DNA from: a virus | Direction: 5' to 3' (one strand) | UHGV virus genome: UHGV-0037280 | DNA: 64,000 bases | Shown here: one piece after another, positions 38,402 to 54,458 of the stretch | How positions within the stretch are numbered: position 1 is the first letter of the stretch | Layout of the letters: every line of letters begins with the position of its first letter | Program-made: the position numbers and the translations under genes | Notes under the pieces: model-generated | What the model was told of the DNA's origin: nothing | What the model saw: the letters and a program-made list of their open reading frames with translations, nothing else | Databases searched by the model: none

Positions 38402-38623
38402 ATGGCTACTATCCCTACCCCAACTCATCCTGAATTTATCTGGCGCTTTTACTCCTGCCAGAAACGTCACTATCACTTCGTTATCGCAACAACAGAAGAT
38501 GAGGCACGTTCTCAGCTTCCGGATGCTCCCTGCATTTTCTCCGCACGCTTTTCTACTGACTCGCGCAATTCTCTCAGTTACTGGTGCCTCCCTGTTAACG
38601 CTTCTGTTCAGGAGGGGCTATGA
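38402..38623 (+). CDS. icd: Icd-like small protein (73 aa)
   Basis: 73 aa, start 11 nt after AAGGAGG, stop overlaps ant start; layout as in P1 immI. Confidence 0.55.
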   Translation: MATIPTPTHPEFIWRFYSCQKRHYHFVIATTEDEARSQLPDAPCIFSARFSTDSRNSLSYWCLPVNASVQEGL

Positions 38624-39732
38624 GAACGTCATTAGTCACCCGTGAAGAGATGATCGAGGCAATTGAACAGCACACAATCTGTATCAGCACCAGGGATATT
38701 CCCGGTGTTATAGCCAATTACTTCATGATCACCAAACAACTCTACAGGAGAAAGGACAAGAACGCGGTTCACCGTATCCTGCTGTCTGATATCCGCGAAT
38801 ACCTGCTCGAACAGGGGCATCTGAATTACGCAACCGTCGCAGCCGAAACACGCAAGGAGGCACACAGAATGAAAGCTACTAACGTTAAATCAGAAAAAGT
38901 TCATGCACCTTCAGTTCAGGAATCAGAGCTGGTGGTTGTTCAAAATCAGCCTGATGAAATTCCCGTTCTGGAATGGCAGGGAGTACGCGTCGTAACGACC
39001 GAAACTCTTGCTAAGGGGTATGGAACCGAAACTAATAACATCAAAGTTAACTATACGCGTAATGCTGATCGCTTTGAGGAAGGTAAACATTACTTTCTAC
39101 TAACTGGTTCAAAATTAAGAGAATTGAAGGACAAGGTTACTCAAAGTAACTTAGTCGCACCGCGAGCAAAGCACCTCACTCTCTGGACGGAGCGTGGCGC
39201 AGCCCGCCACGCTAAAATGCTCGAAACCGATCAGGCATGGGCATTCTTTGAAAAACTGGAAGACAGCTACTTCCGGCAAAAAGAACAGCAACCGGTTGCA
39301 ATCCCCCAGACGCTTCCAGAAGCTCTGCGCCTGGCTGCCGAGTTGGCTGAACAAAAGCAGCTACTGGAACAGAAGGCCCACCAGCTAAATCAACAACTGG
39401 TGGCCGCAGCCCCCAAGGTCGATTTTGCCGACCGGGTATCAGTAGCTAAAGGGATCCTGATTGGGAATTTTGCAAAGGTTGTTGGACTTAAGCAAAACGC
39501 GCTGTTTGCCTGGTTACGGGAGAACGGCATCCTGATTGCGTCCGGCGGACGTAAAAATGTGCCGTTCCAGCAGTACATCACCGCGGGGTATTTCACGGTG
39601 AAAGAAGTGGTGCTGGATGATGAAGATGGCTACCAGATACGGTTGACGCCTCAATTAACGGGTAAAGGCCAGCAGTGGTTAACTCGCAAGCTACTTGATG
39701 CTGGCTTGTTAAAACCGGTGGCGGCTGAATAA
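38620..39732 (+). CDS. ant: Antirepressor Ant (Bro-N/ORF6N-like centre + KilA-C-like C-terminal domain)
   Basis: 370 aa; C-terminal VDFADRVSVAKGILIGNFAKVVGLKQNALFAWLRENGIL typical of phage antirepressor C-domain. Confidence 0.7.
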   Translation: MRTSLVTREEMIEAIEQHTICISTRDIPGVIANYFMITKQLYRRKDKNAVHRILLSDIREYLLEQGHLNYATVAAETRKEAHRMKATNVKSEKVHAPSVQESELVVVQNQPDEIPVLEWQGVRVVTTETLAKGYGTETNNIKVNYTRNADRFEEGKHYFLLTGSKLRELKDKVTQSNLVAPRAKHLTLWTERGAARHAKMLETDQAWAFFEKLEDSYFRQKEQQPVAIPQTLPEALRLAAELAEQKQLLEQKAHQLNQQLVAAAPKVDFADRVSVAKGILIGNFAKVVGLKQNALFAWLRENGILIASGGRKNVPFQQYITAGYFTVKEVVLDDEDGYQIRLTPQLTGKGQQWLTRKLLDAGLLKPVAAE

Positions 39733-41317: not shown

Positions 41318-41351
41318 ATAACTTCGTATAGCATACATTATACGAAGTTAT
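41318..41351 (+). other. loxP site (34 bp)
   Basis: Exact ATAACTTCGTATA GCATACAT TATACGAAGTTAT. Confidence 0.95.
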
Positions 41352-41540
41352 CTTAAGGGTTATTGAACATGATTAATTTACCTGTAAATCCATACAGTTC
41401 AATACCTTATCAGGTCAAATAGTGATCACTTGATCATTTGATCAAGGTTGCGCTACGTAAAATCTGCGAAATGTTGGCAGTGTTAGTGCTCCAGATTTCG
41501 CGTAGCGCACTTAGCACCACCAATCAATCAGAGGTGAAAA

Positions 41541-41762
41541 ATGGGATATTCAGCTGCTAAAGTGTCCACTCATATTGAGCTTGAGAAAAACCGTGGTTAC
41601 TGGCGGGCAAAAGGGTTTGATCGTGATAGTTGTCAACTGTCATTATCGCGCGGTGAAGAGAAAATAGAACGCACGCGCGGTCGCTGGCGTTTCTATGACG
41701 AGAACCATAAACAGGTAAAGGCAGAGCCGATCCTGTACACTTTACTTAAAACCATTATCTGA
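41541..41762 (+). CDS. Small ORF upstream of cre (73 aa)
   Basis: ORF track; precedes cre by 8 nt. Confidence 0.35.
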   Translation: MGYSAAKVSTHIELEKNRGYWRAKGFDRDSCQLSLSRGEEKIERTRGRWRFYDENHKQVKAEPILYTLLKTII

Positions 41763-41769
41763 GTGTTAA

Positions 41770-42801
41770 ATGTCCAATTTACTGACCGTACACCAAAATT
41801 TGCCTGCATTACCGGTCGATGCAACGAGTGATGAGGTTCGCAAGAACCTGATGGACATGTTCAGGGATCGCCAGGCGTTTTCTGAGCATACCTGGAAAAT
41901 GCTTCTGTCCGTTTGCCGGTCGTGGGCGGCATGGTGCAAGTTGAATAACCGGAAATGGTTTCCCGCAGAACCTGAAGATGTTCGCGATTATCTTCTATAT
42001 CTTCAGGCGCGCGGTCTGGCAGTAAAAACTATCCAGCAACATTTGGGCCAGCTAAACATGCTTCATCGTCGGTCCGGGCTGCCACGACCAAGTGACAGTA
42101 ATGCTGTTTCACTGGTCATGCGACGGATCCGAAAAGAAAACGTTGATGCCGGTGAACGTGCAAAACAGGCACTGGCGTTCGAACGCACTGATTTCGACCA
42201 GGTTCGTTCACTCATGGAAAATAGCGATCGCTGCCAGGATATACGTAATCTGGCATTTCTGGGGATTGCTTATAACACCCTGTTACGTATAGCCGAAATT
42301 TCCAGGATCAGGGTTAAAGATATCTCACGTACTGACGGTGGGAGAATGTTAATCCATATTGGCAGAACGAAAACGCTGGTTAGCACCGCTGGTGTAGAGA
42401 AGGCACTTAGCCTGGGGGTAACTAAACTGGTTGAGCGATGGATTTCTGTCTCTGGTGTAGCTGATGATCCGAATAACTACCTGTTTTGCCGCGTCAGAAA
42501 AAATGGTGTTGCCGCTCCATCATCCACCAGCCAGCTATCAACTCGCGCCCTGGAAGGGATTTTTGAAGCAACTCACCGATTGATTTACGGGGCAAAAGAT
42601 GACTCTGGTCAGCGATACCTGGCCTGGTCTGGACATAGTGCCCGTGTCGGTGCCGCGCGAGATATGGCCCGAGCCGGAGTTTCTATACCGGAGATCATGC
42701 AAGCTGGTGGCTGGACCAACGTAAATATTGTCATGAACTACATTCGTAACCTGGATAGTGAAACGGGGGCAATGGTGCGCCTGCTGGAAGATGGCGATTA
42801 G
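41770..42801 (+). CDS. cre: Cre tyrosine recombinase
   Basis: 343 aa starting MSNLLTVHQNLPALPVDATSDEVRKNLMDMFRDRQAFSEHTWKMLLSVCRSWAAWCKLNNRKWFPAEPEDVRDYLLYLQARGLAVKTIQQHLGQLNMLHRR; adjacent loxP. Confidence 0.95.
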   Translation: MSNLLTVHQNLPALPVDATSDEVRKNLMDMFRDRQAFSEHTWKMLLSVCRSWAAWCKLNNRKWFPAEPEDVRDYLLYLQARGLAVKTIQQHLGQLNMLHRRSGLPRPSDSNAVSLVMRRIRKENVDAGERAKQALAFERTDFDQVRSLMENSDRCQDIRNLAFLGIAYNTLLRIAEISRIRVKDISRTDGGRMLIHIGRTKTLVSTAGVEKALSLGVTKLVERWISVSGVADDPNNYLFCRVRKNGVAAPSSTSQLSTRALEGIFEATHRLIYGAKDDSGQRYLAWSGHSARVGAARDMARAGVSIPEIMQAGGWTNVNIVMNYIRNLDSETGAMVRLLEDGD

Positions 42802-42818
42802 CCGTTCATTTGCTCTTT

Positions 42819-42835
42819 ATTGCTCTAATTATTTG
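42819..42835 (+). promoter_or_regulatory. C1 operator (ATTGCTCTAATTATTTG)
   Basis: 14/17 match between cre stop and next gene. Confidence 0.5.
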
Positions 42836-42851
42836 ATATTTATGGTTACAC

Positions 42852-43163
42852 ATGCGGAAGGATTTCAAAATAGACGGAAAATATGTGGTGCTGTCTGTAA
42901 GCTCTCAAATTCAGTCACCATCTGTCATTGTCACCGTAAAGTTGAGCGATAGGATGCCTGATATCGACTCGATATCTGTTGCGTTCCCCGTTAAAAGCAT
43001 GCGGAGTGCTGAACATTTTGTGATGAATGCAACGGAGGAGGAAGCACGGCGCGGGCTTACTAGAGTGATGGCGGAATTTGGCGAACTCCTGGGTAAGGTA
43101 AACAATGCCCTTTCAATCAGTTCAGCAAGATCCAAAGCGTTAACAGCTTCCATGATGAAATAA
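42852..43163 (+). CDS. Hypothetical protein downstream of cre (103 aa)
   Basis: ORF track; ATG 42852. Confidence 0.5.
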   Translation: MRKDFKIDGKYVVLSVSSQIQSPSVIVTVKLSDRMPDIDSISVAFPVKSMRSAEHFVMNATEEEARRGLTRVMAEFGELLGKVNNALSISSARSKALTASMMK

Positions 43164-43188
43164 AAAAAAGCCTGGCAAGGAGCCAGGC
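43162..43188 (-). terminator. Intrinsic terminator for minus-strand transcripts
   Basis: aaaaaaaa gcctggc aagga gccaggc; U-run on minus strand. Confidence 0.5.
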
Positions 43189-43378
43189 TGCACAAAAGAG
43201 CGGGGTTGTATTCCGCATCCAATCAATCAAGAAGGAGTATAGCACACAGGTACTGAAGAGAAAAAATGTGATTCGCGATAGATAAAATAGCCACTATTGT
43301 TATAATTAATTGCCATAATTGAGTTATGGCTTTAGTCAACTACGAAGACATTGCCATTATAGACTCCGTGACATCATT

Positions 43379-43402
43379 GGCGGCCGAAAGGCCGCCTTTT
43401 TT
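43379..43402 (+). terminator. Intrinsic terminator (ggcggcc gaaa ggccgcc T6)
   Basis: 7-bp GC stem, GAAA loop, tttttt. Confidence 0.6.
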
Positions 43403-43404
43403 AA

Positions 43405-44463
43405 TCATTCAGCCGCCACCGGTTTTAACAAGCCAGCATCGAGCAGTTTACGCGTCAACCACTGTTGGCCTTTCCCCGTTAATTGAGGCGTCAGCCGTAT
43501 CTGATAGCCATCTTCATCATCCAGCACCACTTCTTTCACTGTGAAATATCCGGCGTTTATGTACTGCTGAAACGGTACATTTTTACGTCCGCCGGACGCA
43601 ATCAGGATGCCGTTCTCCCGTAACCAGGCAAACAACGCGTTTTGCTTAAGCCCAACAACCTTTGCAAAATTTCCAATCAGGATCCCCTTGGCCCCTGATA
43701 CCCGGTCGGCAAAATCGACTTTAGGGGCGGCGGCCACCAGCTGCTGATTTAGCTGGTGGGCTTTCTGTTCCAGAAGTTGCTTTTGTTCAGCCAGCTCGGC
43801 AGCCAGGCGCAGAGCTTCGGGGAGTGTTTGGGGAATCACTGGAGAAGCAGTGCTAGCCTGCTGCAATTCCTCCAGTTTGTCGATCAGCGAACGGCGGACC
43901 GCTTTTGACTCGCGCGCGGCAACTCTCAGGGCTTGTTTGTAGGTCATGGAGATAGTTTCAGATGTTGTGTTGTTTAATTTTTGCACTACGAAAATTTCGT
44001 AGTACTCACCATCCAGTTCATCCTTAACTCTGGCAATAAAATCATTATTGCGAACTGGTTTTTCGCTACATAATTTCCGCGCTTCATTGACCATCTTTAA
44101 CAGCGTCTGGCTGTCGATTGTGTCTCCGGTGTTGGGGATAGCATCCATGGCCGTTGCTGGTGTGGTTGCTGTCAAAGGCTTTGTAACGACAACATCTGGT
44201 TTGCTTGCTTTCATTCTGTGTGCCTCCTTGCGTGTTTCGGCTGCGACGGTTGCGTAATTCAGATGCCCCTGTTCGAGCAGGTATTCGCGAATATCAGACA
44301 GCAGGATACGGTGAACCGCGTTCTTGTCCTTTCTCCGGTAAAGTTGTTTGGTGATCATGAAGTAGTTGGCAATAACACCCGGTATATCCCTGGTACTGAT
44401 ACAGGCAGTGTGCTGTTCAATTGCCTCAATCATCTCTTCACGGGTGACTAATGACGTTCTCAT
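43405..44463 (-). CDS. Antirepressor paralog with swapped central module
   Basis: 352 aa; N-terminal about 85 aa and C-terminal about 150 aa near-identical to 38620-39732 product, central region unrelated. Confidence 0.7.
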   Translation of the reverse strand: MRTSLVTREEMIEAIEQHTACISTRDIPGVIANYFMITKQLYRRKDKNAVHRILLSDIREYLLEQGHLNYATVAAETRKEAHRMKASKPDVVVTKPLTATTPATAMDAIPNTGDTIDSQTLLKMVNEARKLCSEKPVRNNDFIARVKDELDGEYYEIFVVQKLNNTTSETISMTYKQALRVAARESKAVRRSLIDKLEELQQASTASPVIPQTLPEALRLAAELAEQKQLLEQKAHQLNQQLVAAAPKVDFADRVSGAKGILIGNFAKVVGLKQNALFAWLRENGILIASGGRKNVPFQQYINAGYFTVKEVVLDDEDGYQIRLTPQLTGKGQQWLTRKLLDAGLLKPVAAE

Positions 44464-44681
44464 AGTCCCTCCTGAGCAGAAGCGTTAACAGGGAGGCACC
44501 AGTAACTGAGAGAATTGCGCGAATCGGTAGAAAAACGGGCGGAGAAAATGCAGGGAGCATCCGGAAGCTGAGAACGTGCCTCATCTTCTGTTGGTGCGAT
44601 AACGAAGTGATAGTGACGTTTTTGACAAGAATAGAAGCGCCAGATGAATTCAGGGCGTGCGCAAGGATTGGCATTAACCAT
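44460..44681 (-). CDS. Icd-like small protein, second copy with divergent N-terminus
   Basis: 73 aa; identical to copy 1 from PEFIWRFYSC onward. Confidence 0.55.
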   Translation of the reverse strand: MVNANPCARPEFIWRFYSCQKRHYHFVIAPTEDEARSQLPDAPCIFSARFSTDSRNSLSYWCLPVNASAQEGL

Positions 44682-44719
44682 AGTTACGGCCTCACTAACA
44701 GGTTTAACAACCTGCTACC

Positions 44720-44790
44720 CGCTGCTAAACAGGTGGCAGGACGTGACGGGGTTAGCAGACTGGCGTTAGTGAAACCAGCAGGCCGAAGCC
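44720..44790 (-). ncRNA. Candidate c4-like antisense RNA of module 2
   Basis: Minus-strand segment tcactaac (plus-strand gttagtga 44765-44772) is perfectly complementary to the SD-containing leader (plus-strand 44692-44699) of the second icd copy; boundaries approximate. Confidence 0.3.
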
Positions 44791-44998
44791 TCCCCATCAC
44801 GCCCCACCATAATTTGGGCGTAACGCGGTTTTACGGACACAAAAATACCGCAATATCGGATATCTGCGGTTGTCCACACTAACATTCAGGCTGCTAAACC
44901 CGGTCGCAGAATTTGCTACGACGTAGGAACTATAAGCCTGAACAACAGGAAGATCAATAGTCTGGCGTCCAATAGTAGTTTATTTGTTTCAATAAATC

Positions 44999-45015
44999 AA
45001 ATTTATTAGAGCAAC
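44999..45015 (-). promoter_or_regulatory. C1 operator (reverse complement GTTGCTCTAATAAATTT)
   Basis: 16/17 match. Confidence 0.6.
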
Positions 45016-45076
45016 AACAATCTAGTTGAATGTTTCCTCTCTGAGGTTGCAATGTGCACACTTAGTGCCTTATTTG

Positions 45077-45093
45077 TATGCACTAATAAATAT
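45077..45093 (+). promoter_or_regulatory. Weaker C1 operator-like site (TGCACTAATAAAT core)
   Basis: 12/13 core match about 60 bp from previous operator. Confidence 0.35.
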
Positions 45094-45275
45094 ATTATTT
45101 TTAATAATAAATAATTGACAACTGACAAGTGACTTCAGTCAGAATCATCACACGCCCGGTACGGATGGATCCCTTTTCAAATATTCCATGGACGGCACAG
45201 TCTGAGTACCGGGCGCTACCTTCTGTTGTATTGCTAAGCCGCCGCTGGTGGCTTTTCTTTTTTGTAGGGGGCGCT

Positions 45276-45917
45276 ATGGATAAGAAAATATGCGTTGTTT
45301 CGATGAGCGTCGGCAAACCGGCGTCAATGACTGCTGCATGGATCAACAACGAGCTGATAATGGCTGAGCGTACCAGCTACCCTGAACGCCGCCGCGACAT
45401 GGAACTCCAGCTGCTGCGCGAATTGCGAGAAAAAGAGGAAAAGGGTTTTATCGTGCTGGTGGAAGAGGAAAACAGCTTTATTACTGGTCGAGTTGGCCAG
45501 CGTGTAAGGTTGCGCGATCCCTTCATGAACGGCAGGCCGGTACTGATTGAAGCAATGCAGATTTACAAGGAGCTGGAACGCCAGAAAGCGATCAAGTTAC
45601 CGCGCAAAGAATCCGGCAAATACATCCTCCACCAAAGCATCTTCGATTCCGAACATGACAAAAAAGGCGATGAATTTTTCAACATCAACTGGAGCGAAAT
45701 AACGACAGAGCACGTTCTGACGTTGTTATGCTGCTTCGCAACGGAATACAACAACGTTGCAAGCTCCGACTACATCAGGGCAATGGCTGGAGAAATTGAT
45801 ACCCGCCAAGAACCTTCGTTACTAAGCTCCCTTGTGAATATAATTCAAGCTACTCATGAAATGACCGCACGGAAAGTGCCTCAAGGTTCATTAACCGGCA
45901 GAGATAATTATCTTTAA
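45276..45917 (+). CDS. Hypothetical protein downstream of operator pair (213 aa)
   Basis: ATG 45276 (in frame with ORF-track start 45129); no HNH or other recognisable motif; convergent with PIN-like gene. Confidence 0.5.
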   Translation: MDKKICVVSMSVGKPASMTAAWINNELIMAERTSYPERRRDMELQLLRELREKEEKGFIVLVEEENSFITGRVGQRVRLRDPFMNGRPVLIEAMQIYKELERQKAIKLPRKESGKYILHQSIFDSEHDKKGDEFFNINWSEITTEHVLTLLCCFATEYNNVASSDYIRAMAGEIDTRQEPSLLSSLVNIIQATHEMTARKVPQGSLTGRDNYL

Positions 45918-45959
45918 ACTTCTTGGGCGCTAACTATGCGCCCACGCCCATTACATTAA

Positions 45960-46910
45960 TTAATCAATAAATACACGGAATGGCTCAAGCATCCCTTCAG
46001 GATCTTTATCCTCGTCACCAAGTGATATTAGTCTTCTGGCGAGTAGTTTTACATCATCATCATCTTTAATGAAGCCAACCTGATCATTATTAAAATAGAT
46101 ATCGATTATTTTTAGGATTTGCTCTTGTGTAAAATGATTGAATTTTAATAACTTTGCTACAACTCGATGTGTTGTGGCAAAACTGCCTGAGCGGCGTAAT
46201 TCATCTATAGTGAAATTAACTTCCATTTCCGCTAAGTTACTGGCTTGAGGAAAGTGCTCGCCTATAAACTCTGATAAGCGGGCATAGATATGTGGTTCTG
46301 AATCTTTCTTCTTTTTCCACTCGTACTTCAAATACTCATTCATATCATCCTTTATAAAGGCACTTTTATAATCACCATCTTCAGTTATAATGTATATATC
46401 CTCTCCGTTTGGTATCGCTTTTAGCAAACACTCCCAATTGACTGCATCACCATATGATTTATTTTTACCCGGAGGGTTGCCAAGATCGAATCGGCGTTTC
46501 CCCTTTTCTATTGTTTCATCATCAGCCTCTATCTTAGACGCTGCATCAAAAATCCTTTTAATTACAACATCGGCAGCTAAAGACTCTTCTTTAAATAAGT
46601 TCTGTATATCGGTAATAATTTCATTCTTTAGCCGACTAGCTTCTATAACCTTATCATTAAATAGTGAATGTTTTTCATGCTGTCTGAAAATCTGTGGTAG
46701 CGCGGGCTTGTAGTCTTTTGCAATTTCCTTTATGGTTTCAGAGAGAACTTTAGAACGATTTCTCCAGAACTCATTCACTAAAAGTTCTGGCAACCAAAGT
46801 TTTAAACGACCATATTGATGTAAGGCAAATACTTTATCTAGCTCATCTAGTTTATCCTTACCCATTCGATAAAATTCTAAATATAGATTTGTATCAATAA
46901 AAACATTCAT
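45960..46910 (-). CDS. PIN-like nuclease-domain protein (316 aa), AT-rich
   Basis: N-terminus MNVFIDTNLYLEFY with Asp at position 6, later acidic cluster ITEDGDY, consistent with a PIN-like fold; AGGATG SD; strongly AT-rich versus flanks. Confidence 0.65.
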   Translation of the reverse strand: MNVFIDTNLYLEFYRMGKDKLDELDKVFALHQYGRLKLWLPELLVNEFWRNRSKVLSETIKEIAKDYKPALPQIFRQHEKHSLFNDKVIEASRLKNEIITDIQNLFKEESLAADVVIKRIFDAASKIEADDETIEKGKRRFDLGNPPGKNKSYGDAVNWECLLKAIPNGEDIYIITEDGDYKSAFIKDDMNEYLKYEWKKKKDSEPHIYARLSEFIGEHFPQASNLAEMEVNFTIDELRRSGSFATTHRVVAKLLKFNHFTQEQILKIIDIYFNNDQVGFIKDDDDVKLLARRLISLGDEDKDPEGMLEPFRVFID

Positions 46911-46934
46911 ATCACATCCTAATTATAAGTAATT

Positions 46935-46963
46935 TAGGCCACTCTAAAAAATAAAGTGGCCTA
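46935..46963. other. 9-bp-stem hairpin between lxc stop and PIN-like gene start
   Basis: taggccact ctaaaaaataa agtggccta; no flanking U-run. Confidence 0.4.
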
Positions 46964-46971
46964 ATAAGAAA

Positions 46972-47220
46972 TCAATCAGCATTCAGAAGCAATGCGTTAT
47001 CTATGATGATCTGCTCCCATTCTTCGAATGCCCGATCGCGGACGCCCTGGGGAACGCTGTTAGTTTTGAAATCGACGACCGTACGCCATTTCCCGTCCGG
47101 ACGGTACATGCGCAGAGCTTTACTTCCCCCTTCCCTGCGCACCTCAACGTTATGCTTGTCAGCAAACTCTTGTAATGCTCGTAGCGTCCCATGCTTTACT
47201 GTGTAGTATCGCTTTTTCAA
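46972..47220 (-). CDS. lxc: Lxc/Bof-like C1 co-repressor modulator (82 aa)
   Basis: 82 aa basic protein downstream of ulx-darB on same strand. Confidence 0.65.
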   Translation of the reverse strand: MKKRYYTVKHGTLRALQEFADKHNVEVRREGGSKALRMYRPDGKWRTVVDFKTNSVPQGVRDRAFEEWEQIIIDNALLLNAD

Positions 47221-47657
47221 GTTTTCTCTCCAGCCTGTGCTAAGGCTTCAACTTCCAAATCGTAAGACTCAAACTCATAGTCCTGGTCGTCAACCTCTTC
47301 AGGCACTGGCAGTAAATGCCAGGCTGAGTATATCTGACCATTATCAAAACGCTCCTGGCTGTAGAGCGTCGCAGCTATGAGCGTCAGCGCCGGGCGGTCA
47401 TAACGGTAAATTTTGCGAACGTCACGGTCAACGAGACGACCGAAATTACCATAACCGCGCTCCAGTAATAATTTTTTAATTTCCGGCCAGTATGGACCAT
47501 AGCTGCGGTACAGGCGGGGATTTTTCAGTAATCGCCCGCGTAGCCCTGACAGGAAGAAATCAACGTATTCGTCTTCTGTCTTTCCTAACAACGCTGTACG
47601 GAGTACCGCCTCAAGATATGTTTTATTCGGTTTTATTGTATCAGATAGTGTGGCCAT
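47217..47657 (-). CDS. ulx: Ulx-like protein (146 aa)
   Basis: Immediately downstream of darB, ATGA-coupled to lxc. Confidence 0.55.
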   Translation of the reverse strand: MATLSDTIKPNKTYLEAVLRTALLGKTEDEYVDFFLSGLRGRLLKNPRLYRSYGPYWPEIKKLLLERGYGNFGRLVDRDVRKIYRYDRPALTLIAATLYSQERFDNGQIYSAWHLLPVPEEVDDQDYEFESYDLEVEALAQAGEKT

Positions 47658-47690
47658 ATTATGCGACGCCCGGCGAACCGGGCGCTCCTG

Positions 47691-50600
47691 TTATGCGTAT
47701 TGTTGGATGACGGCCAGAACGTCCGCCACGTTGTGTTTTGTCTCGATAATCCACCAGTTACCCGGGAAATCGCTGTTCTTCGCCTTCGCTGGCAGCCAGC
47801 GAGCGCCGAATTTCGCCTTGATTGCGTCTTTCGCACGGAAAAGAACGCCTTTCATGCCTGAGGCTTCCTGAAGCCCAAATACCTCGCCAGCGGCGAATTT
47901 TGGTGCGTACATCATCTTCAGGTCGGCGGTGGATACGCGATAATTCAGACCAAGAGACTGAGCTATGCTGGTGGCATCACCCTGTATTGATGATAACTCT
48001 TCTTGTTTCTCGTTTCTGGCGGCAATCTCTTCCTCCGTGATGTTGCCAAGGGCTAGGTTTATCCGATCAGCGTCGGCCTGTTTCTCTTCATCGGTGCGCC
48101 CGGCAAGAACCGTGTTAATTCTCTGCAATATCTCCACATGATTCTTGCGCATGCTGAGCAATTCCGGCGTAACCTCGTTAAGATCCACCAGCCCAAGGAT
48201 GGCAAGGTCGGAAAACATTGATACCAGGTTGTAGGTCATGCGATAGCTGAGTTGACCATAGGCTGATGGCAACTTCACCGCATCCATTTGATAGGCATCC
48301 ATAAATTTAGAGCCGTCGTTTACGACATCCGCTATTGCAGGTGTGATTTTCCCTGTGGTGGCGGCCTCCCTGATTGCTGTTACCCACGATTGAGTCAGCG
48401 CGGCGACTGCATGATTCAGATTGGCTTCCCGTTCTGCTGCGATGCGCGCGCTTGCTGCGTCCATTGCCTGCTTGATCTCGGCTTTATTGCTGTAAATGCC
48501 AATGGTGCCAAACTGTGCTGTGGTGATCTCATAATCTGACGCCCGGAACTCATTGGTACCGAAAATGGCATTGGTGACTTCAAGTTCAGAATCCCCGTTA
48601 CGAGTAGCCCCCTGGCTTGTTTTTTCCGGCATTCTGGCGATCGCATCCGCTATTTTCTCCTGAATTGCTTCAGGGGATAGCGTATCTCCGTATGACGCGA
48701 TTACATCGCCATAATTGGAGCCAAACAGTTCAACCAGGAATGTTTCTGCCGAACGGATCTGGCGGTTATTCCCTTCCGACATCATACCAAGCACCCATTT
48801 TGCAATTGACGACTTCAGCGCGCCGTCACGGCGATCCGGGTAAACCGCATGCTTCAGTGGGTCCGTATAGGTACCAACAAAATCGATGCTATAGCCTGAC
48901 TCTGTAGTCTGAACGCCGTATGAGTCAGTGATTTTGATCATGCCGCGCTGCTGGAAACGGTAGAAATCGTCACAGGAAATGATGTCGTTAATCCCGGCGA
49001 TGGAGACGCCACCACTGATTTTCTGCATAACAGCATCTTCATCGGGAGTTACATCAACCTGTTTATCCAGCGTCTTCACATCCCAGTTACCCGATTTGGT
49101 GCCTTTGAAGGTAAAGATGATCTCCACGTCTGCGCGCTGGCTGTCGAAGTCCAGCGACTTAATGCGAACGATATCACCGGCACAATCATAGTATTGGCCT
49201 ACACGCCATGAGCGATCGCCGATAACAAGGAACTCATTCGCATGGTTAACCAGATCAGGATCAACATCCAGAATGCCTTTATTTATTGCATCCTCCACCA
49301 GCGGGCGCAGGCGTTTGATATCCGTCGCGGCCTTCTGAGTACGGTTCAATAATTTCTCATAGCGGGAGATGGCCTGAGAGATATTAGCCTTGCGCTGAAT
49401 GGCGCTTTTCAACGACGCGCGATACTGTGCTAACAACGTACGGTCTGTGTGATGGACGCTACCCCAGCGGGCTTTCCAGTCTGCGTTATCAGCTGCTTTG
49501 GCCATTACCGCCTGTTTGAATTTAGCTACCTCGGCGGTGGTCTTTTCAAGTTCCGCTTTGCTTCGCTCTAATTCAGCGGTAAGCACCTCCACATCCTCAC
49601 CAGCTGCGTGCTGCGCCTTGATGTAGTTCTGAAGGTCGATAGTAGCCTGTTCTTTCTGGCGAGCGCGTTGCGCGGCTTTCGCCTTATCCATTTGAACCTG
49701 CATCATTGCCAGACGTTCGCCATCATCCTTAGCGGTATACATCTGCATTTCGATCATATCGTTGGCGTCGGCGTTCTCCATTTCTGACTTATCTGAACGG
49801 AGGATATCGGAGATCCAGCCTGCTTTACGCTTCAGCGTCTTCAGTCGGTATTCATCGAAAGAACCCTTGCCGCAGTAGTAGTGAACGCGAACGCTTGCAC
49901 GGTTGGAGCCAACTCGGGCACCGCGACCGTTTCGTTGCGCAATACTGGCTGGAGTCCATGGCAACGTCAGATGATGGATGTCAGTCGTTCCTCGATGCAG
50001 GTTGATACCCACCTCTGCCTTTTTGTTGCAGATGATGATCGGAGTCCGGCCCTCCTGGAAGTCGGCTGCAATCTTTTCCAGACCGCCCAACGACATTTCA
50101 TTTTGCTGCGCGATATAGGCGTCATACAGAGCCATTTGCTCGTTGTATTTCGCTATCTGTGCATCTGTTGGTTCATCCGGTAACTCTTTCGGCGGTTTAA
50201 CCGCTTTCAGTTTCTTACCGGTTTTACCTGCCTCGGCAACCGTCTGAGCATTCAGTATCCCCACCTTTGAAGGTTCAAGGTTAAGAGCATTGCAGATAAT
50301 GCGCTTGAGCTTCTGGTGCTGCGTTTTTTCATCGGTGAAGATGATTTGCTTACCTTCCGGGAAAAACTCCTTCAGCGTGGCAATCAGCTTCGCGTATTTG
50401 GGCGTAACGGGGTGAGTTACGGTCTGTTCGTCAATGCCAAACCTGGCCAGGCGCTTATTCACTTCCTGCTCGAACGCTTCCGGAACCTGCAACTGAATAA
50501 ACTCGCCCTTATCTATCAGGGAGTATTGCGATTGCTGCGTGATTAAATCATCACTGTCGTCGTCTTCGCTGGTGGCTTGTTTAGGCAAACTGTCCGTCAG

Positions 50601-53600
50601 CTGCTGCACCGCATCGGCGTACTCCGGCAGGAAACGATAGGTGATCCGGCGATAGTACAGGTCCATGTCAGTACATACGCGGTCCATATCCCTGATTATT
50701 GAGAAGATCGGACGGGCTTTCTCGTGCTCAATCACGCCGTCTTCATTGACCGAGGTCGTTACACCATTGTTGGCTTTGGCCGCCGCTTCCGCCTGCTGAC
50801 GCAATTCTTCATACGCCGCCAGTTGTTCTTCAGTAAGTGGTGCATCCTGCTGGTGTTCGTCCAGTTCCGGGATCTCCACGGTATCCTTAACGTCTTCCGC
50901 CGTTTTAAGCGTTGTCCAGCGATGGAATATGCCGCGCAGCGCATCAAGGTTTTCAAAACCCACCAGCGCCATTTTTTCTTCAACTTCGCCGCTGATTTTC
51001 TGTACCGTTTCCAGCCTGGTCTTGCCGAAGAATTTTACGAAGTCATCAGGACTGTAGATCCCCATCTTCTGCCAGTATTCCTTCGGCAGAACATGAGAAA
51101 GCATGTTGTATGCATCGATCGGGGTGTTAACGACTGGTGTTGCAGTCAGGAGAACCGGTCCGCGCCCGCCATTCTTTTTCATCAAGTACGCGTTTTTGAT
51201 TGCCATATCTCGCGCCGATTGCGCCACCGCGCTGGTGGGCAGATAGGCCAGCTGTGACGCTTCGCGACCATTTTTATAGCTATTGCGGTAGTTGTGGCCT
51301 TCGTCAGCAATCACGCTGTCGAAGCCCATATCCTCAAAGTACGGATACTTCTCTGCTTTTTCGGTACCGGTATCTGAATACTCCGACAATACCCGGCGAC
51401 GCGCCGCCTCTTTGCGGTGGGAGTCGGAATCCATTGCGCTGGCTACGCGCCCGGCGGCAACGAAGTCATAAAGCATGTCTTGTGCATGCTCATCTACGGT
51501 GTCATCACGTAGCGGAATGCGGGCGTATTGTTCTTTGGTAAACACGACTGCACGGTAGTTTGAGTGCGGGATCGCGTTCATCCGCGCCGTGATAGTGGCT
51601 TCATCTGCCAGCTTAAGAGCATCGCGCATAACTGGAGTGCCATCAGTACCAAGAACAGGTTTACCGTTCTCATTGAGCACCGGCACCTGGCGAATCTGAT
51701 CGCCATCCATCAGCACATCAAGACCGACGAACAAGTAGTTACTGAATGCCTCTTCACTCAGGAATTCTTTTGCTTCGTAATACCAATTTTCCAGCACTGA
51801 TTTAGGCACTACATACGCAGTACGGGTAGAGCGACCGTTCTCATAGTTGAACGCCTCAAGCGCCAGCGCGGTCGTGGTTTTACCCAGACCGGTGCCGAAG
51901 CCCAGGATGCCGCGCCCATCTTCGGACAGTCGGCGCACCTCGCTATTCTGGTAATCAAATGGCTGGCGCTTACCGCTTAATCCCTTCAACCCAAGCGGAT
52001 CGCCAGAGTGTTCATACGGGATATTGCTATTGAACACATCGTTGTATTTGGCAACCAGCTCATCGTAGCGATCGTGCGTCTTGATCCACTTATTGAACTG
52101 GTCCTCAAGCAGTGCCATCTGCTCGCGGTAGCCGTTCGCCGTCGCGCTATCTTTGCCACCGATACGCGCACCATTGAGATACTTTTCCAGCTGTGCCGGG
52201 AACCCGGTCGCGTTTTCACCCGATTTACGGTCCCACTCGTAGCGGATCTCGCCTGTTTCTTTATCCTTGCGCTGGACGACACCGTATCGGTGCCCGACGA
52301 ACAGACCATCACCACCGTGATAGGTGTCAGAAACCATTTCGTCGCCTTCCAGCTGCACTGACTGCACATAGCGCAGATCCGGATAGCCGTTTTCCTGCAA
52401 AAATTCCAGAATGACGGAGCGGTCGAACCAACGGCTATTGAGCTTAAAGCGGATATTCTCTGCTGGCGTCTTGATGCGCTTCTCTTCGATCGCTGCCAGC
52501 TGATTAAGGACGTTGTTCTTTACTGGACCGTCGGGGAGTGTGGCAAGAAATTCCTGTTTTGGAGCCACTATCTCGTTAATGTCGCCGCTGGTGGCGCGGG
52601 CGAACGGAACAATCCCGCCATACGGTGAAACCGCAATACCAGGGGTGCTGGCCAATAAATTAAGCAACTCTTCATCACTGGCTGGCAGTTCGCCGGTAAA
52701 CGCAAGGCGGAAATCATCGAGCTGGATTGGATCGCGGGTAAGATCGCTATAGAGATAACGCAGGGTGTCCTGATAGCTGGTGGAGTCATAACTGGCGCTG
52801 GAATCATGCGTAACCAGCTTTCCTGTCAGCTCGTCAGAAATAGTGCCATCCAGCTTAATCGCACCACGGAAAGCAAACCAGGCGCGCGCACCGCTCCCCG
52901 ACAATTTCGCTATCGGACCGCGACCGGGGTTACCAAAACGGTCAATCTCTGCCTGCAAACGGGATACCAGAGAAAGGCGCTGCTGTTCGATTTGTTCAGC
53001 ACTATGCCCGGCGGCCTTCATGTCCTGATATTCAATTAACATCCGGCCAATCATCGCCCCGCGATACAAGCGTTCACGGTATTTTTCAGGCTGGCTGTTA
53101 ATCCAGTCCACCAGCTGCACCATATCGTCGCTGATTGATGTGGTGTACTTATCGCGGACATTTGCCATCTGGGTAAATGTCATGCCGAGACGGCCTTCTG
53201 TTGTAGTCAGGTTACGCTGAAGAGCCTCCCAGCTATCCGCGCCATAACTGGCAGCATCGATCTTAAGTTCCTTCCCGGCATCAGCTTCAATCCAGCGACC
53301 ACCAGCATATTTTTGCCATACGCCATTAATCAGGCGCATTTCCCCTTCACCAACAACGTCTGCGGTCGGTGACGGTTCAGCCATATCGAGCAAAGACCAG
53401 TCGATACGGCTTTCGAAACGATGAATCAGCTTCGCTTTAAGAGCCTGGTTATCAATCTGACCGTCGGCACGAACCTCAATACGCCCCTGGAAGCCCTTTT
53501 CCTGGGTGCCATGAACAAACCGGCGGCCGTCCTTTTCAAACCACTTGCCAGAAATAAACGTTGGCCAAAGCACATTTGCCGATTCGAGAGTGCTTTCATC

Positions 53601-54458
53601 CACCAGGGGGATTTTCTCAGCCATCTCTGCCGGATGTTTGCGCATCAGCACCACATCAACGACTGTACTGGTCCCGTTTGCGTCAAAAGTACCGGTAGGC
53701 AAGCGGTGGGCACCAAGAAATTCAGCTTTCCGTGATAGGCGCAGGCGTAACCGCTTCATGTTTGAACCTGAAACAATGGACGGCGGCACAATCACGCACA
53801 TGAATCCGCCTGGCTTTATCTTGTCCAGCATGCGGAGCATGAAGTAAGAACCCATGTCCGTTTCTTCTGCATAAGGCTTATCGATGTTGCGTGTGTTATC
53901 ACGACCACCGAACGGAACGTTACCCACAACATGGTCGAATGAATCGTTAGGCGTGCTTACAGCCAGCTGTTCGAACGGGGAAATCTGTACGCTGTCTTCC
54001 GGGTGTAACAGCTGGTTTATACGACCGGAAACACTGCTGATCTCAGTCGCAGTCATCACCGTACCAACCGGTTTTGTCTCATTAAAAACGCCGGTGCCCG
54101 CCGATGGTTCCAGAGTGTTACCTACGTCCGCGCCGTAGAGCTTCATGATCTCCCAGACACCTTCAGCGATCGGCTTTGGTGTGTAATATTCGGAGACGGA
54201 CCCGCCAATGCCGCCTTCACCGGTGTACCCAGCCAGGATCTGGCGCTGTTCATCTGTCAGTGTCGCGCCGTCCACCAGCGAATTAAGCAAATCTATCGCC
54301 TTCTGATTCGCCTCCCGGCGCAGTCGGTCATAGCTTTTGCCTTCCACCTTTTCCACGCCGTATTTAATCGGCGCTCGGTGAGATGTTATTGCCCTAATGT
54401 ATTTCAATATTTCGCTGACACTTGAACAGCGAAACACCCCCATAGATAGCTTGTTCAT
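47691..54458 (-). CDS. darB: DarB antirestriction protein (N-terminal MTase-like domain + DExH helicase), 2255 aa
   Basis: Single 6.8-kb ORF; MTase motifs LEPSAGTGVF and GNVPFG; helicase motifs GFGTGLGKTT and IADEGHNYRN; size and order match P1 DarB. Confidence 0.9.
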   Translation of the reverse strand: MNKLSMGVFRCSSVSEILKYIRAITSHRAPIKYGVEKVEGKSYDRLRREANQKAIDLLNSLVDGATLTDEQRQILAGYTGEGGIGGSVSEYYTPKPIAEGVWEIMKLYGADVGNTLEPSAGTGVFNETKPVGTVMTATEISSVSGRINQLLHPEDSVQISPFEQLAVSTPNDSFDHVVGNVPFGGRDNTRNIDKPYAEETDMGSYFMLRMLDKIKPGGFMCVIVPPSIVSGSNMKRLRLRLSRKAEFLGAHRLPTGTFDANGTSTVVDVVLMRKHPAEMAEKIPLVDESTLESANVLWPTFISGKWFEKDGRRFVHGTQEKGFQGRIEVRADGQIDNQALKAKLIHRFESRIDWSLLDMAEPSPTADVVGEGEMRLINGVWQKYAGGRWIEADAGKELKIDAASYGADSWEALQRNLTTTEGRLGMTFTQMANVRDKYTTSISDDMVQLVDWINSQPEKYRERLYRGAMIGRMLIEYQDMKAAGHSAEQIEQQRLSLVSRLQAEIDRFGNPGRGPIAKLSGSGARAWFAFRGAIKLDGTISDELTGKLVTHDSSASYDSTSYQDTLRYLYSDLTRDPIQLDDFRLAFTGELPASDEELLNLLASTPGIAVSPYGGIVPFARATSGDINEIVAPKQEFLATLPDGPVKNNVLNQLAAIEEKRIKTPAENIRFKLNSRWFDRSVILEFLQENGYPDLRYVQSVQLEGDEMVSDTYHGGDGLFVGHRYGVVQRKDKETGEIRYEWDRKSGENATGFPAQLEKYLNGARIGGKDSATANGYREQMALLEDQFNKWIKTHDRYDELVAKYNDVFNSNIPYEHSGDPLGLKGLSGKRQPFDYQNSEVRRLSEDGRGILGFGTGLGKTTTALALEAFNYENGRSTRTAYVVPKSVLENWYYEAKEFLSEEAFSNYLFVGLDVLMDGDQIRQVPVLNENGKPVLGTDGTPVMRDALKLADEATITARMNAIPHSNYRAVVFTKEQYARIPLRDDTVDEHAQDMLYDFVAAGRVASAMDSDSHRKEAARRRVLSEYSDTGTEKAEKYPYFEDMGFDSVIADEGHNYRNSYKNGREASQLAYLPTSAVAQSARDMAIKNAYLMKKNGGRGPVLLTATPVVNTPIDAYNMLSHVLPKEYWQKMGIYSPDDFVKFFGKTRLETVQKISGEVEEKMALVGFENLDALRGIFHRWTTLKTAEDVKDTVEIPELDEHQQDAPLTEEQLAAYEELRQQAEAAAKANNGVTTSVNEDGVIEHEKARPIFSIIRDMDRVCTDMDLYYRRITYRFLPEYADAVQQLTDSLPKQATSEDDDSDDLITQQSQYSLIDKGEFIQLQVPEAFEQEVNKRLARFGIDEQTVTHPVTPKYAKLIATLKEFFPEGKQIIFTDEKTQHQKLKRIICNALNLEPSKVGILNAQTVAEAGKTGKKLKAVKPPKELPDEPTDAQIAKYNEQMALYDAYIAQQNEMSLGGLEKIAADFQEGRTPIIICNKKAEVGINLHRGTTDIHHLTLPWTPASIAQRNGRGARVGSNRASVRVHYYCGKGSFDEYRLKTLKRKAGWISDILRSDKSEMENADANDMIEMQMYTAKDDGERLAMMQVQMDKAKAAQRARQKEQATIDLQNYIKAQHAAGEDVEVLTAELERSKAELEKTTAEVAKFKQAVMAKAADNADWKARWGSVHHTDRTLLAQYRASLKSAIQRKANISQAISRYEKLLNRTQKAATDIKRLRPLVEDAINKGILDVDPDLVNHANEFLVIGDRSWRVGQYYDCAGDIVRIKSLDFDSQRADVEIIFTFKGTKSGNWDVKTLDKQVDVTPDEDAVMQKISGGVSIAGINDIISCDDFYRFQQRGMIKITDSYGVQTTESGYSIDFVGTYTDPLKHAVYPDRRDGALKSSIAKWVLGMMSEGNNRQIRSAETFLVELFGSNYGDVIASYGDTLSPEAIQEKIADAIARMPEKTSQGATRNGDSELEVTNAIFGTNEFRASDYEITTAQFGTIGIYSNKAEIKQAMDAASARIAAEREANLNHAVAALTQSWVTAIREAATTGKITPAIADVVNDGSKFMDAYQMDAVKLPSAYGQLSYRMTYNLVSMFSDLAILGLVDLNEVTPELLSMRKNHVEILQRINTVLAGRTDEEKQADADRINLALGNITEEEIAARNEKQEELSSIQGDATSIAQSLGLNYRVSTADLKMMYAPKFAAGEVFGLQEASGMKGVLFRAKDAIKAKFGARWLPAKAKNSDFPGNWWIIETKHNVADVLAVIQQYA

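Follow-up and report, generated by a model that had tools for sequence, protein, structure and literature searches.

The DNA analysed here comes from the viral genome UHGV-0037280; it is a stretch of 64,000 nucleotides which we call the window. The window belongs to a P1-like phage-plasmid, and our interest is in a single AT-rich gene located between mat and lxc, in the place where P1 carries res and mod, the genes of its type III restriction-modification (RM) system. Comparison with P1 (NC_005856) by BLAST yields three collinear blocks. The block with lox, cra, cre and c8 at window positions 41335-43402 corresponds to P1 1-2069, Omat and most of mat (45078-45846) correspond to P1 2629-3397, and the block with lxc, ulx and darB extends from 46974 onward and corresponds to P1 9752 onward. 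Two segments of P1 are replaced between these blocks. P1 2070-2628, which contains ref, is swapped for window 43403-45077, and P1 3398-9751, which according to the P1 annotation holds the end of mat, res, and a mod gene interrupted by IS5, is swapped for window 45847-46973. No open reading frame (ORF) for Mod or Res is found between mat and lxc in the window. This bears out the initial annotation, which had described P1 synteny on both sides of an interval that lacks the restriction genes and is occupied by an AT-rich ORF with a PIN-like N-terminus.

The second replaced segment is a cassette of 1127 bp with a GC content of 35.8%, its limits being the BLAST breakpoints against P1. The cassette consists of the divergent last ~24 codons of mat, one gene, and a hairpin. 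The gene (45960-46910, minus strand) codes for a protein of 316 aa with a PIN_12 nuclease domain followed by a helical C-terminal module. With 35.2% GC it stands apart from the whole window (48.2%) and from mat, lxc-ulx and darB (48-52%). The gene is separated from its neighbours by 42 and 61 bp, and the rest of the cassette is free of ORFs of at least 25 aa. An antisense ORF of 107 aa (46390-46713, plus strand) lies wholly within the PIN gene and is unlikely to be a real gene. The cassette is flanked on the left by mat (45165-45917, plus strand), which has 96.5% nucleotide identity to mat of P1, and on the right by lxc (46972-47220, minus strand), which codes for the C1 co-repressor and was placed by the P1 annotation and the alignment of the junction. 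Rfam has no match inside the cassette, and NCBIfam none for the PIN protein or mat.

The N-terminal part of the protein (residues ~3-220, encoded at 46251-46904 on the minus strand) has a five-stranded core with helical inserts. It is assigned to the Pfam family PIN_12 (PF16289, formerly DUF4935) with 65.9 bits at a cut-off of 32 (E 7.6e-18), and the match of residues 3-181 spans the complete profile, positions 1-172 of 172. PIN_8 is a secondary match. The predicted model of the protein has a pLDDT of 90.5; its fold is VapC-like and also resembles PcrIIC1, a DNA-targeting accessory nuclease. We measured conservation in an alignment of 66 homologues, in which 24 columns are invariant. These include D6, E47, R50, N51, R52, D114, R140, D178, D180, E197, W198 and N275 as well as a PPGK core and the residues S152, G154, D155 and W159 inside the block GNPPGKNKSYGDAVNWE, which is otherwise conserved to at least 90%. 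The acidic site is made up of D6 in the FIDTN motif, E47, D114, D155, and D178/D180 in the TEDGDY motif, all of which are invariant. The protein therefore combines a PIN fold with conserved acidic, metal-binding residues, and it aligns to no housekeeping gene of P1.

A database search returned 157 homologues; among the matches listed, at least 85% of the query is covered and the lengths are 312-345 residues. Full-length homologues come from Proteobacteria and Bacteroidota, that is, from Enterobacterales, Vibrio and many Bacteroidota. Two alleles of the gene are present on P1-like elements and differ by a dS of 0.42 and a dN of 0.03. Since dN/dS is as low as 0.07, the coding sequences indicate that the gene is maintained by purifying selection, and the ORF is intact in all copies examined. 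We are confident that the gene encodes a functional protein of the PIN_12 nuclease fold and that it has been acquired horizontally.

The C-terminal part of the protein had been described by the initial annotation as an extension without a recognisable motif. Our searches give a different picture. Residues ~221-316 (45963-46250, minus strand) constitute a HEAT-like helical module, whose motif is I..L..S..F..TH ... Q ... N.Q ... D.D(V/I)..F. The module comprises ~80-95 residues and is predicted to be an alpha-solenoid of about two to three helical repeats. It is absent from Pfam-A. Residues 226-297 match positions 298-369 of the 384 positions of PDC-S34 (E 1.4e-11), a candidate system of PADLOC (10.1101/2024.01.29.577857), the homology of the last ~80-95 residues extending over positions ~297-372 of the model, and five other members of the family likewise match PDC-S34 with the tail only. 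We do not regard the protein as a member of PDC-S34, as only the last third of the model is matched and not most of its positions. An exhaustive phmmer search with the C-terminal region against 1.8 billion representative proteins returned mostly proteins of PIN_12 architecture, plus two others. One is a reverse transcriptase (RT) of 561 aa (P0181) which matches the PADLOC model RT_UG30 with E 3e-124 and, more weakly, Drt6, Drt4 and AbiK. The homologous residues are 470-549, and its tail matches PDC-S34 with E 2.7e-43. The other (P0248, 504 aa) is an FRG-domain protein which matches PDC-S15 (E 6e-40) and has the shared tail at residues 423-486. With a profile made from this C-terminal region in the PIN_12 family, the reverse transcriptase reaches 72 bits and the FRG protein 80 bits. 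On sequence grounds the tail is a module common to several defence or candidate defence families.

Homology in this tail links the protein to a UG30-type reverse transcriptase, PDC-S15 and PDC-S34, and the module may correspond to the tail of the class-1 UG/Abi reverse transcriptases (AbiK, DRT). The class-1 enzymes are defined by a C-terminal HEAT-like domain termed alphaRep, and in the UG15 enzyme a C-terminal deletion of 38 residues abolishes immunity (Mestre et al. 2022, PMC9226505). The protein described here differs from them in that its enzymatic domain is a PIN nuclease and not a reverse transcriptase or FRG domain, and in that it has two to three repeats and not a full alphaRep array. 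It is possible, though we hold this only tentatively, that the tail is a portable module for infection sensing or assembly which has been joined to at least four unrelated effectors, namely PIN_12, the UG30-class reverse transcriptase, FRG/PDC-S15 and PDC-S34.

We then asked what other P1-like elements carry at this place. A Mat probe retrieved 80 P1-like contigs from IMG/VR (L010-L089), and the mat-lxc interval could be measured in the 74 which have both genes; the intervals were clustered and their ORFs annotated. Over these 74 loci we found ten alternative contents, that is, nine AT-rich cargo types or none. The most frequent cargo is a SIR2_2 protein of 434-435 aa related to PDC-S25/ThsA (14 loci), followed by a RelA/SpoT toxin of 378-379 aa (PDC-S33, E 5e-87; 11 loci), and by a DUF2971 protein (PDC-S31; 10 loci). 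A GNAT acetyltransferase is present at 9 loci, and another 9 have a slot of 29-39 bp without cargo. Type III res and mod are found at 7 loci and the PIN_12 gene of the window at 5. Three loci each have a YaaC protein together with a nucleoside-deoxyribosyltransferase-like protein, an icd-ant module with a helix-turn-helix (HTH) protein and JukA (E 3e-66), or a small lipoprotein. The GC content of the cargo is 35-43% throughout, and the cargo occurs in both orientations. The cassette of the window agrees with this pattern in that it lies between mat and lxc, has a GC content of 0.36, and is replaced by other cargo in the relatives. Other P1-like elements thus use the slot for known or candidate defence genes, and the initial annotation was right to call it a hotspot for defence genes.

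Some of these cargo types are without a match in PADLOC v2. These are the pair of a YaaC-like protein (346 aa) and a nucleoside-2-deoxyribosyltransferase-like protein (169 aa) at L047, L051 and L064, the GNAT protein of 201 aa, which exists as two alleles (L034 and L046 classes), and the lipoprotein of 135 aa at L083, L087 and L088.

The junctions of the cargo are informative. In all of the compared cargo classes, the sequence agrees with P1 again, exactly or almost exactly, from the stop codon of lxc. Most cargo classes have their own hairpin just before this stop codon, and it is usually GC-rich. The left boundary lies within the last 70-110 nt of mat, which are mosaic and differ between the cargo classes compared. 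Because of this pattern at the 3′ end of mat and at the lxc stop codon, we suggest that the cargo is exchanged by homologous recombination in the flanking genes and not by a site-specific mechanism. A comparative study of P1-like phage-plasmids (PMC9603915) already names the region, which is low in GC, "highly variable region 1 (res-mod)", and type III RM, CapRel and other systems have been surveyed on P1-like elements (10.1101/2025.09.12.675607). Neither study mentions the PIN gene.

The cassette is present in 30 of 5426 complete E. coli genomes, in all cases on plasmids. A mat homologue is found in 695 of these genomes, which puts P1-like elements at ~13%. The cassette is also present in phage JL22, where the PIN gene is annotated as "hypothetical protein gp7", and in 23 plasmids of PLSDB, where it is annotated as "PIN domain-containing protein". 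The more distant relatives are located in diverse surroundings. A protein from Klebsiella and E. coli with 63% identity is encoded in an integrative island together with type I RM (hsdMS), HNH, Mrr, ScoMcrA, CbtA/CbeA and anti-restriction genes. The Pantoea relative is situated at a prophage end adjoining a serine recombinase, and the Vibrio relative adjoins a DUF4011 helicase. One relative comes directly after a type IIG RM gene, the stop codon of which overlaps with its start codon, one is part of an integrative element that also encodes MutH, a DNA methylase and an AAA+ protein, one is carried by a conjugative element, and yet another lies directly beside a phage-type integrase. The neighbours are not conserved between these loci, which agrees with the description of DUF4935/PIN_12 genes as monocistronic (Matelska et al. 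2017, PMC5499597).

In that work the family consists of bacterial proteins of ~320-380 aa, and its features, an N-terminal PIN-like domain with a long helical insert after strand 2 and an uncharacterised C-terminal region, fit the protein of the window. The earlier description assigned the family neither a function nor a C-terminal homology, whereas our searches connect the C-terminus of this subfamily with defence reverse transcriptases, FRG proteins and PDC-S34. In the literature (DUF4935, PF16289, PDC-S34 and P1 lxc/defence) we found no functional study of the subfamily. The only PIN_12 protein for which we found a phenotype is Cosus (Brc24), a single PIN_12 gene in a mobile-integron cassette which confers complete resistance to T7 (bioRxiv 10.1101/2024.07.02.601719). 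The exchanges T12A, D14A and D96A lower the protection by Cosus more than 10^5-fold, and strong expression is costly or toxic (10.1101/2024.07.02.601719). Cosus is predicted to form a hexamer.

We recovered the Cosus protein from plasmid pKAZ2 (ALG87191.1, 382 aa), where it matches the full PIN_12 profile with 126 bits. Cosus and the protein of the window are both encoded by single genes on mobile elements, and each matches the whole profile with its N-terminal ~180 residues. They have the same layout, with I-D-(T/N) in the first strand, a glutamate after strand 2, GK(N/D)K....DA(V/I) and a late aspartate; through the Pfam profile, D14 and D96 of Cosus correspond to the invariant D6 and D114. 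The vehicle is different, an integron cassette for Cosus and a slot of a phage-plasmid here, and so is the C-terminus. Cosus ends in ~200 residues which are acidic, apparently beta-rich as judged from the sequence, and without the helical module; the profile of the C-terminal region does not match Cosus. Direct similarity between Cosus and the family of the window was found neither by tblastn nor by hmmsearch nor by hhalign of the family profiles. The first tblastn had used a damaged copy of the supplementary Cosus sequence, and the later tests were made with the clean pKAZ2 gene and with family alignments. The common ground is membership in Pfam PIN_12 only, and we therefore reject the protein as a Cosus orthologue and consider it to represent a separate PIN_12 subfamily, because direct similarity is lacking and the C-terminal halves differ. 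We also observed that four proteins of the Cosus family (P0364, P0368, P0374 and P0381; 462-467 aa) have a cold-shock domain (PF00313) at the N-terminus, which hints that the Cosus branch acts on RNA or single-stranded DNA.

Two further comparisons help to place the gene. VapC is half the size of the PIN protein, which adds helical inserts and an extra domain, and the sequence identity is 9-17%. A type II toxin-antitoxin pair of the VapBC kind can be rejected, as no VapB ORF is adjacent in the cassette and the neighbours are not conserved among the homologues. EcoP1I, encoded by res and mod of P1, occupies the same slot between mat and lxc, has a similarly low GC content and would have the same role as a phage barrier expressed by the lysogen. 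Unlike EcoP1I, the PIN cassette encodes an unrelated protein with a different mechanism, and it has no methyltransferase, no helicase-nuclease and no marking of self and non-self.

The surroundings of the gene bear on how it may be expressed. Between the stop codon of lxc and the start of the PIN gene there is a stem-loop at 46934-46964 on the minus strand, found by a scan and by RNA folding and already noted in the initial annotation. It has a perfect stem of 10 bp (46934-46943 with 46955-46964) which can be extended to 13 pairs; the free energy of the RNA is -21 kcal/mol, with z = -4.6 relative to shuffled sequences. A U-tract downstream of this hairpin is absent, and an intrinsic terminator is therefore unsupported. 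Probably the hairpin is a weak terminator or an element which stabilises the RNA of the lxc transcript. A perfect TATAAT located 11 nt from the ATG of the PIN gene was rejected as a promoter, as it leaves no room for a Shine-Dalgarno sequence.

Taken together, we suggest that the PIN gene is an anti-phage defence nuclease which the element has acquired as lysogenic-conversion cargo and which probably acts by abortive infection. We give this reading a probability of about 0.7. It is supported by the contents of the slot in relatives, the precedent of Cosus, the shared tail, the genomic contexts of the relatives, the signs of a functional gene (selection, invariant columns and the pLDDT of the model), and its organisation as a single gene without an antitoxin ORF. 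The proposal of the initial annotation that the gene is an acquired defence determinant is thus supported, with the anti-phage phenotype inferred from these lines of evidence.

The following course of events appears plausible to us. In the lysogen the gene would be transcribed at a low level, either because transcription of the lxc operon runs on past the leaky hairpin or because the 3′ end of lxc contains a weak promoter. Expression in the lysogen suggests itself because the mod promoters of P1 lie at the 3′ end of lxc and because here nothing but a hairpin lacking a U-tract stands in the way of read-through. Until the cell is infected by another phage, the nuclease might be kept inactive. 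Its C-terminal module could then sense a trigger or control oligomerisation or assembly, whereupon the PIN domain would cleave nucleic acid. RNA is the likelier substrate because of the VapC-like fold; DNA is possible. Cleavage would abort the infection, so that replication of the invader stops and the clonal population which carries the P1 plasmid is protected.

Several points weigh against this interpretation. Neither the 316-aa protein nor any close relative has a known phenotype, and what triggers it, what it cleaves and what its C-terminal module does are matters of inference. Among the PADLOC v2 models, those of validated systems give no match, and the candidate PDC-S34 is the single significant hit, limited to the last ~72 residues. 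The one characterised PIN_12 defence protein, Cosus, lacks direct similarity to the family. A consensus scan upstream of the PIN gene found no promoter, and a convincing dedicated promoter is missing. Furthermore, the GNAT and lipoprotein cargo of the slot have no obvious role in defence, and the context of one relative resembles housekeeping genes.

We considered other roles for the gene. In a low-copy plasmid prophage, a toxin with a VapC-like fold could serve plasmid addiction by post-segregational killing, with the C-terminal module as a built-in antitoxin, and the cost or toxicity of strongly expressed Cosus, a distant relative, would be in line with this. The cassette, however, has no adjacent antitoxin ORF, 9 of 74 relatives have nothing in the slot, where the cargo elsewhere is RM, SIR2 or JukA and not maintenance genes, and the homologues are mostly cargo of chromosomal islands or prophages. 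In addition, P1-type elements are known to carry phd-doc already. Addiction is therefore unlikely in our view. The position of the gene directly downstream of darB, ulx and lxc, in the same orientation and separated only by a leaky-looking hairpin, might rather point to the phage's own lytic cycle or to counter-defence, in which the nuclease would act alongside the Dar operon and degrade host RNA or DNA or components of host defence. Yet slot cargo occurs in both orientations, and only 5 of 74 P1 relatives and 30 of 695 mat-carrying E. coli genomes have the gene. Since most P1 relatives do without it, the lytic cycle cannot depend on the gene. Moreover, its relatives are found in non-phage islands and conjugative elements, and no anti-defence family was matched, which makes such a role quite improbable.

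Exclusion of incoming plasmids or of related P1-like elements by the nuclease would fit with the gene being carried only by mobile elements, with the resemblance of the PIN fold to PcrIIC1, and with the duplicated immI module of the window (see below), which suggests rivalry with relatives. There is, however, no evidence of DNA specificity, and Cosus, the only characterised PIN_12 protein, counters the lytic phage T7; we thus see little likelihood in competition between elements as the function. Finally, AT-rich foreign DNA without a clear promoter could be a decaying or functionless hitch-hiker. The intact ORF in all copies, the low dN/dS at a dS of 0.42 and the invariance of the catalytic residues across phyla speak against this, and given the signal of selection in the coding sequence a mere passenger is largely refuted and very improbable indeed. 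None of these rivals is favoured by the evidence, and we hold to the interpretation as an acquired defence nuclease.

The other replaced segment of the window belongs to a different interval. The initial annotation had correctly recognised a second icd-ant module, but had placed it in the interval of res and mod; in fact it replaces ref between c8 and mat, and two separate slots, c8-mat and mat-lxc, had been merged into one. The second module consists of ant (43405-44463, 67% identical to the canonical copy), icd (44460-44681, 97% identical), the C4 antisense RNA (44729-44814; Rfam, 53 and 70 bits), the a1/b1 target sites (44883-44935) and a C1 operator (44999-45015, 16 of 17 consensus matches), all on the minus strand. 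The canonical icd-ant copies are located at 38429-39732. The segment 43403-45077 therefore holds a complete immI-type unit in the place of ref, and the element has two C4-icd-ant modules. The divergence between the modules, which is far greater in Ant than in Icd, could be relevant to heteroimmunity or anti-repression. Together with Omat (45077-45093, 13 of 17 matches), the C1 operator annotated in P1, the operator of the second module forms the pair that had been pointed out before. A search of the window with the C1 operator consensus ATTGCTCTAATAAATTT, allowing up to 3 mismatches, gives 16 matches where 0.24 are expected by chance. As far as such sequence matches tell, this is consistent with an intact immunity circuit of the P1 type.

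The P1-like elements of our collection (L010-L089) have a second variable slot, the interval from c8 to mat. Its lengths cluster at ~995 bp (with ref, as in P1), at ~1690-1800 bp, at ~2111-2169 bp, which is the class of the window, and at 3419 bp; in L019 it measures 9635 bp.

As for the genes at the two borders of the cassette, the annotations of P1 and of its relatives give mat as the maturation control protein. The 213-aa ORF at 45276-45917, left unassigned by the initial annotation, is a shorter reading of mat and matches PHROG 1837 with E 6e-110. The long P1-type frame of 250 aa (45165-45917) is open in the window; RefSeq plasmids annotate only the form of 213 aa, and the JL22 record (L001, ON018986.2, 2716-3467) gives mat as two overlapping 'Mat-like' coding sequences. 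On the other side, lxc is preceded by ulx (47217-47657) and darB (47691-54458), both on the minus strand and assigned from the ORF list and the annotation of P1 and JL22. Together they form a conserved anti-restriction operon (47217-54458) upstream of lxc.

In outline, the variable region, defence cargo on P1-like elements and PIN_12 as a defence domain were already known. What is new is that a PIN_12 subfamily is a recurrent occupant of the res/mod slot of P1, that the subfamily shares its tail with a defence reverse transcriptase, an FRG protein and PDC-S34, and that the cargo repertoire of the slot has been catalogued. The slot represents a natural allelic series of cargo on a nearly identical, and in this sense isogenic, backbone, which is convenient for comparative phenotyping; PIN_12, SIR2 (PDC-S25), DUF2971 (PDC-S31) and YaaC are candidate defence cargo that could be compared on this one backbone.

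P1-like elements are vehicles of resistance genes. If the PIN gene protects lysogens, it would explain part of what P1-like phage-plasmids give to their hosts, and it would add a second, architecturally distinct PIN_12 branch to the anti-phage repertoire. Because a nuclease and a reverse transcriptase share the tail with two PADLOC candidates, it offers a concrete way into the question of how infection is sensed by defence systems that consist of a single protein. The interest would rise if the shared tail proved to be a common sensor; as a portable module of this kind, it would imply that the four families respond to the same kind of phage cue.

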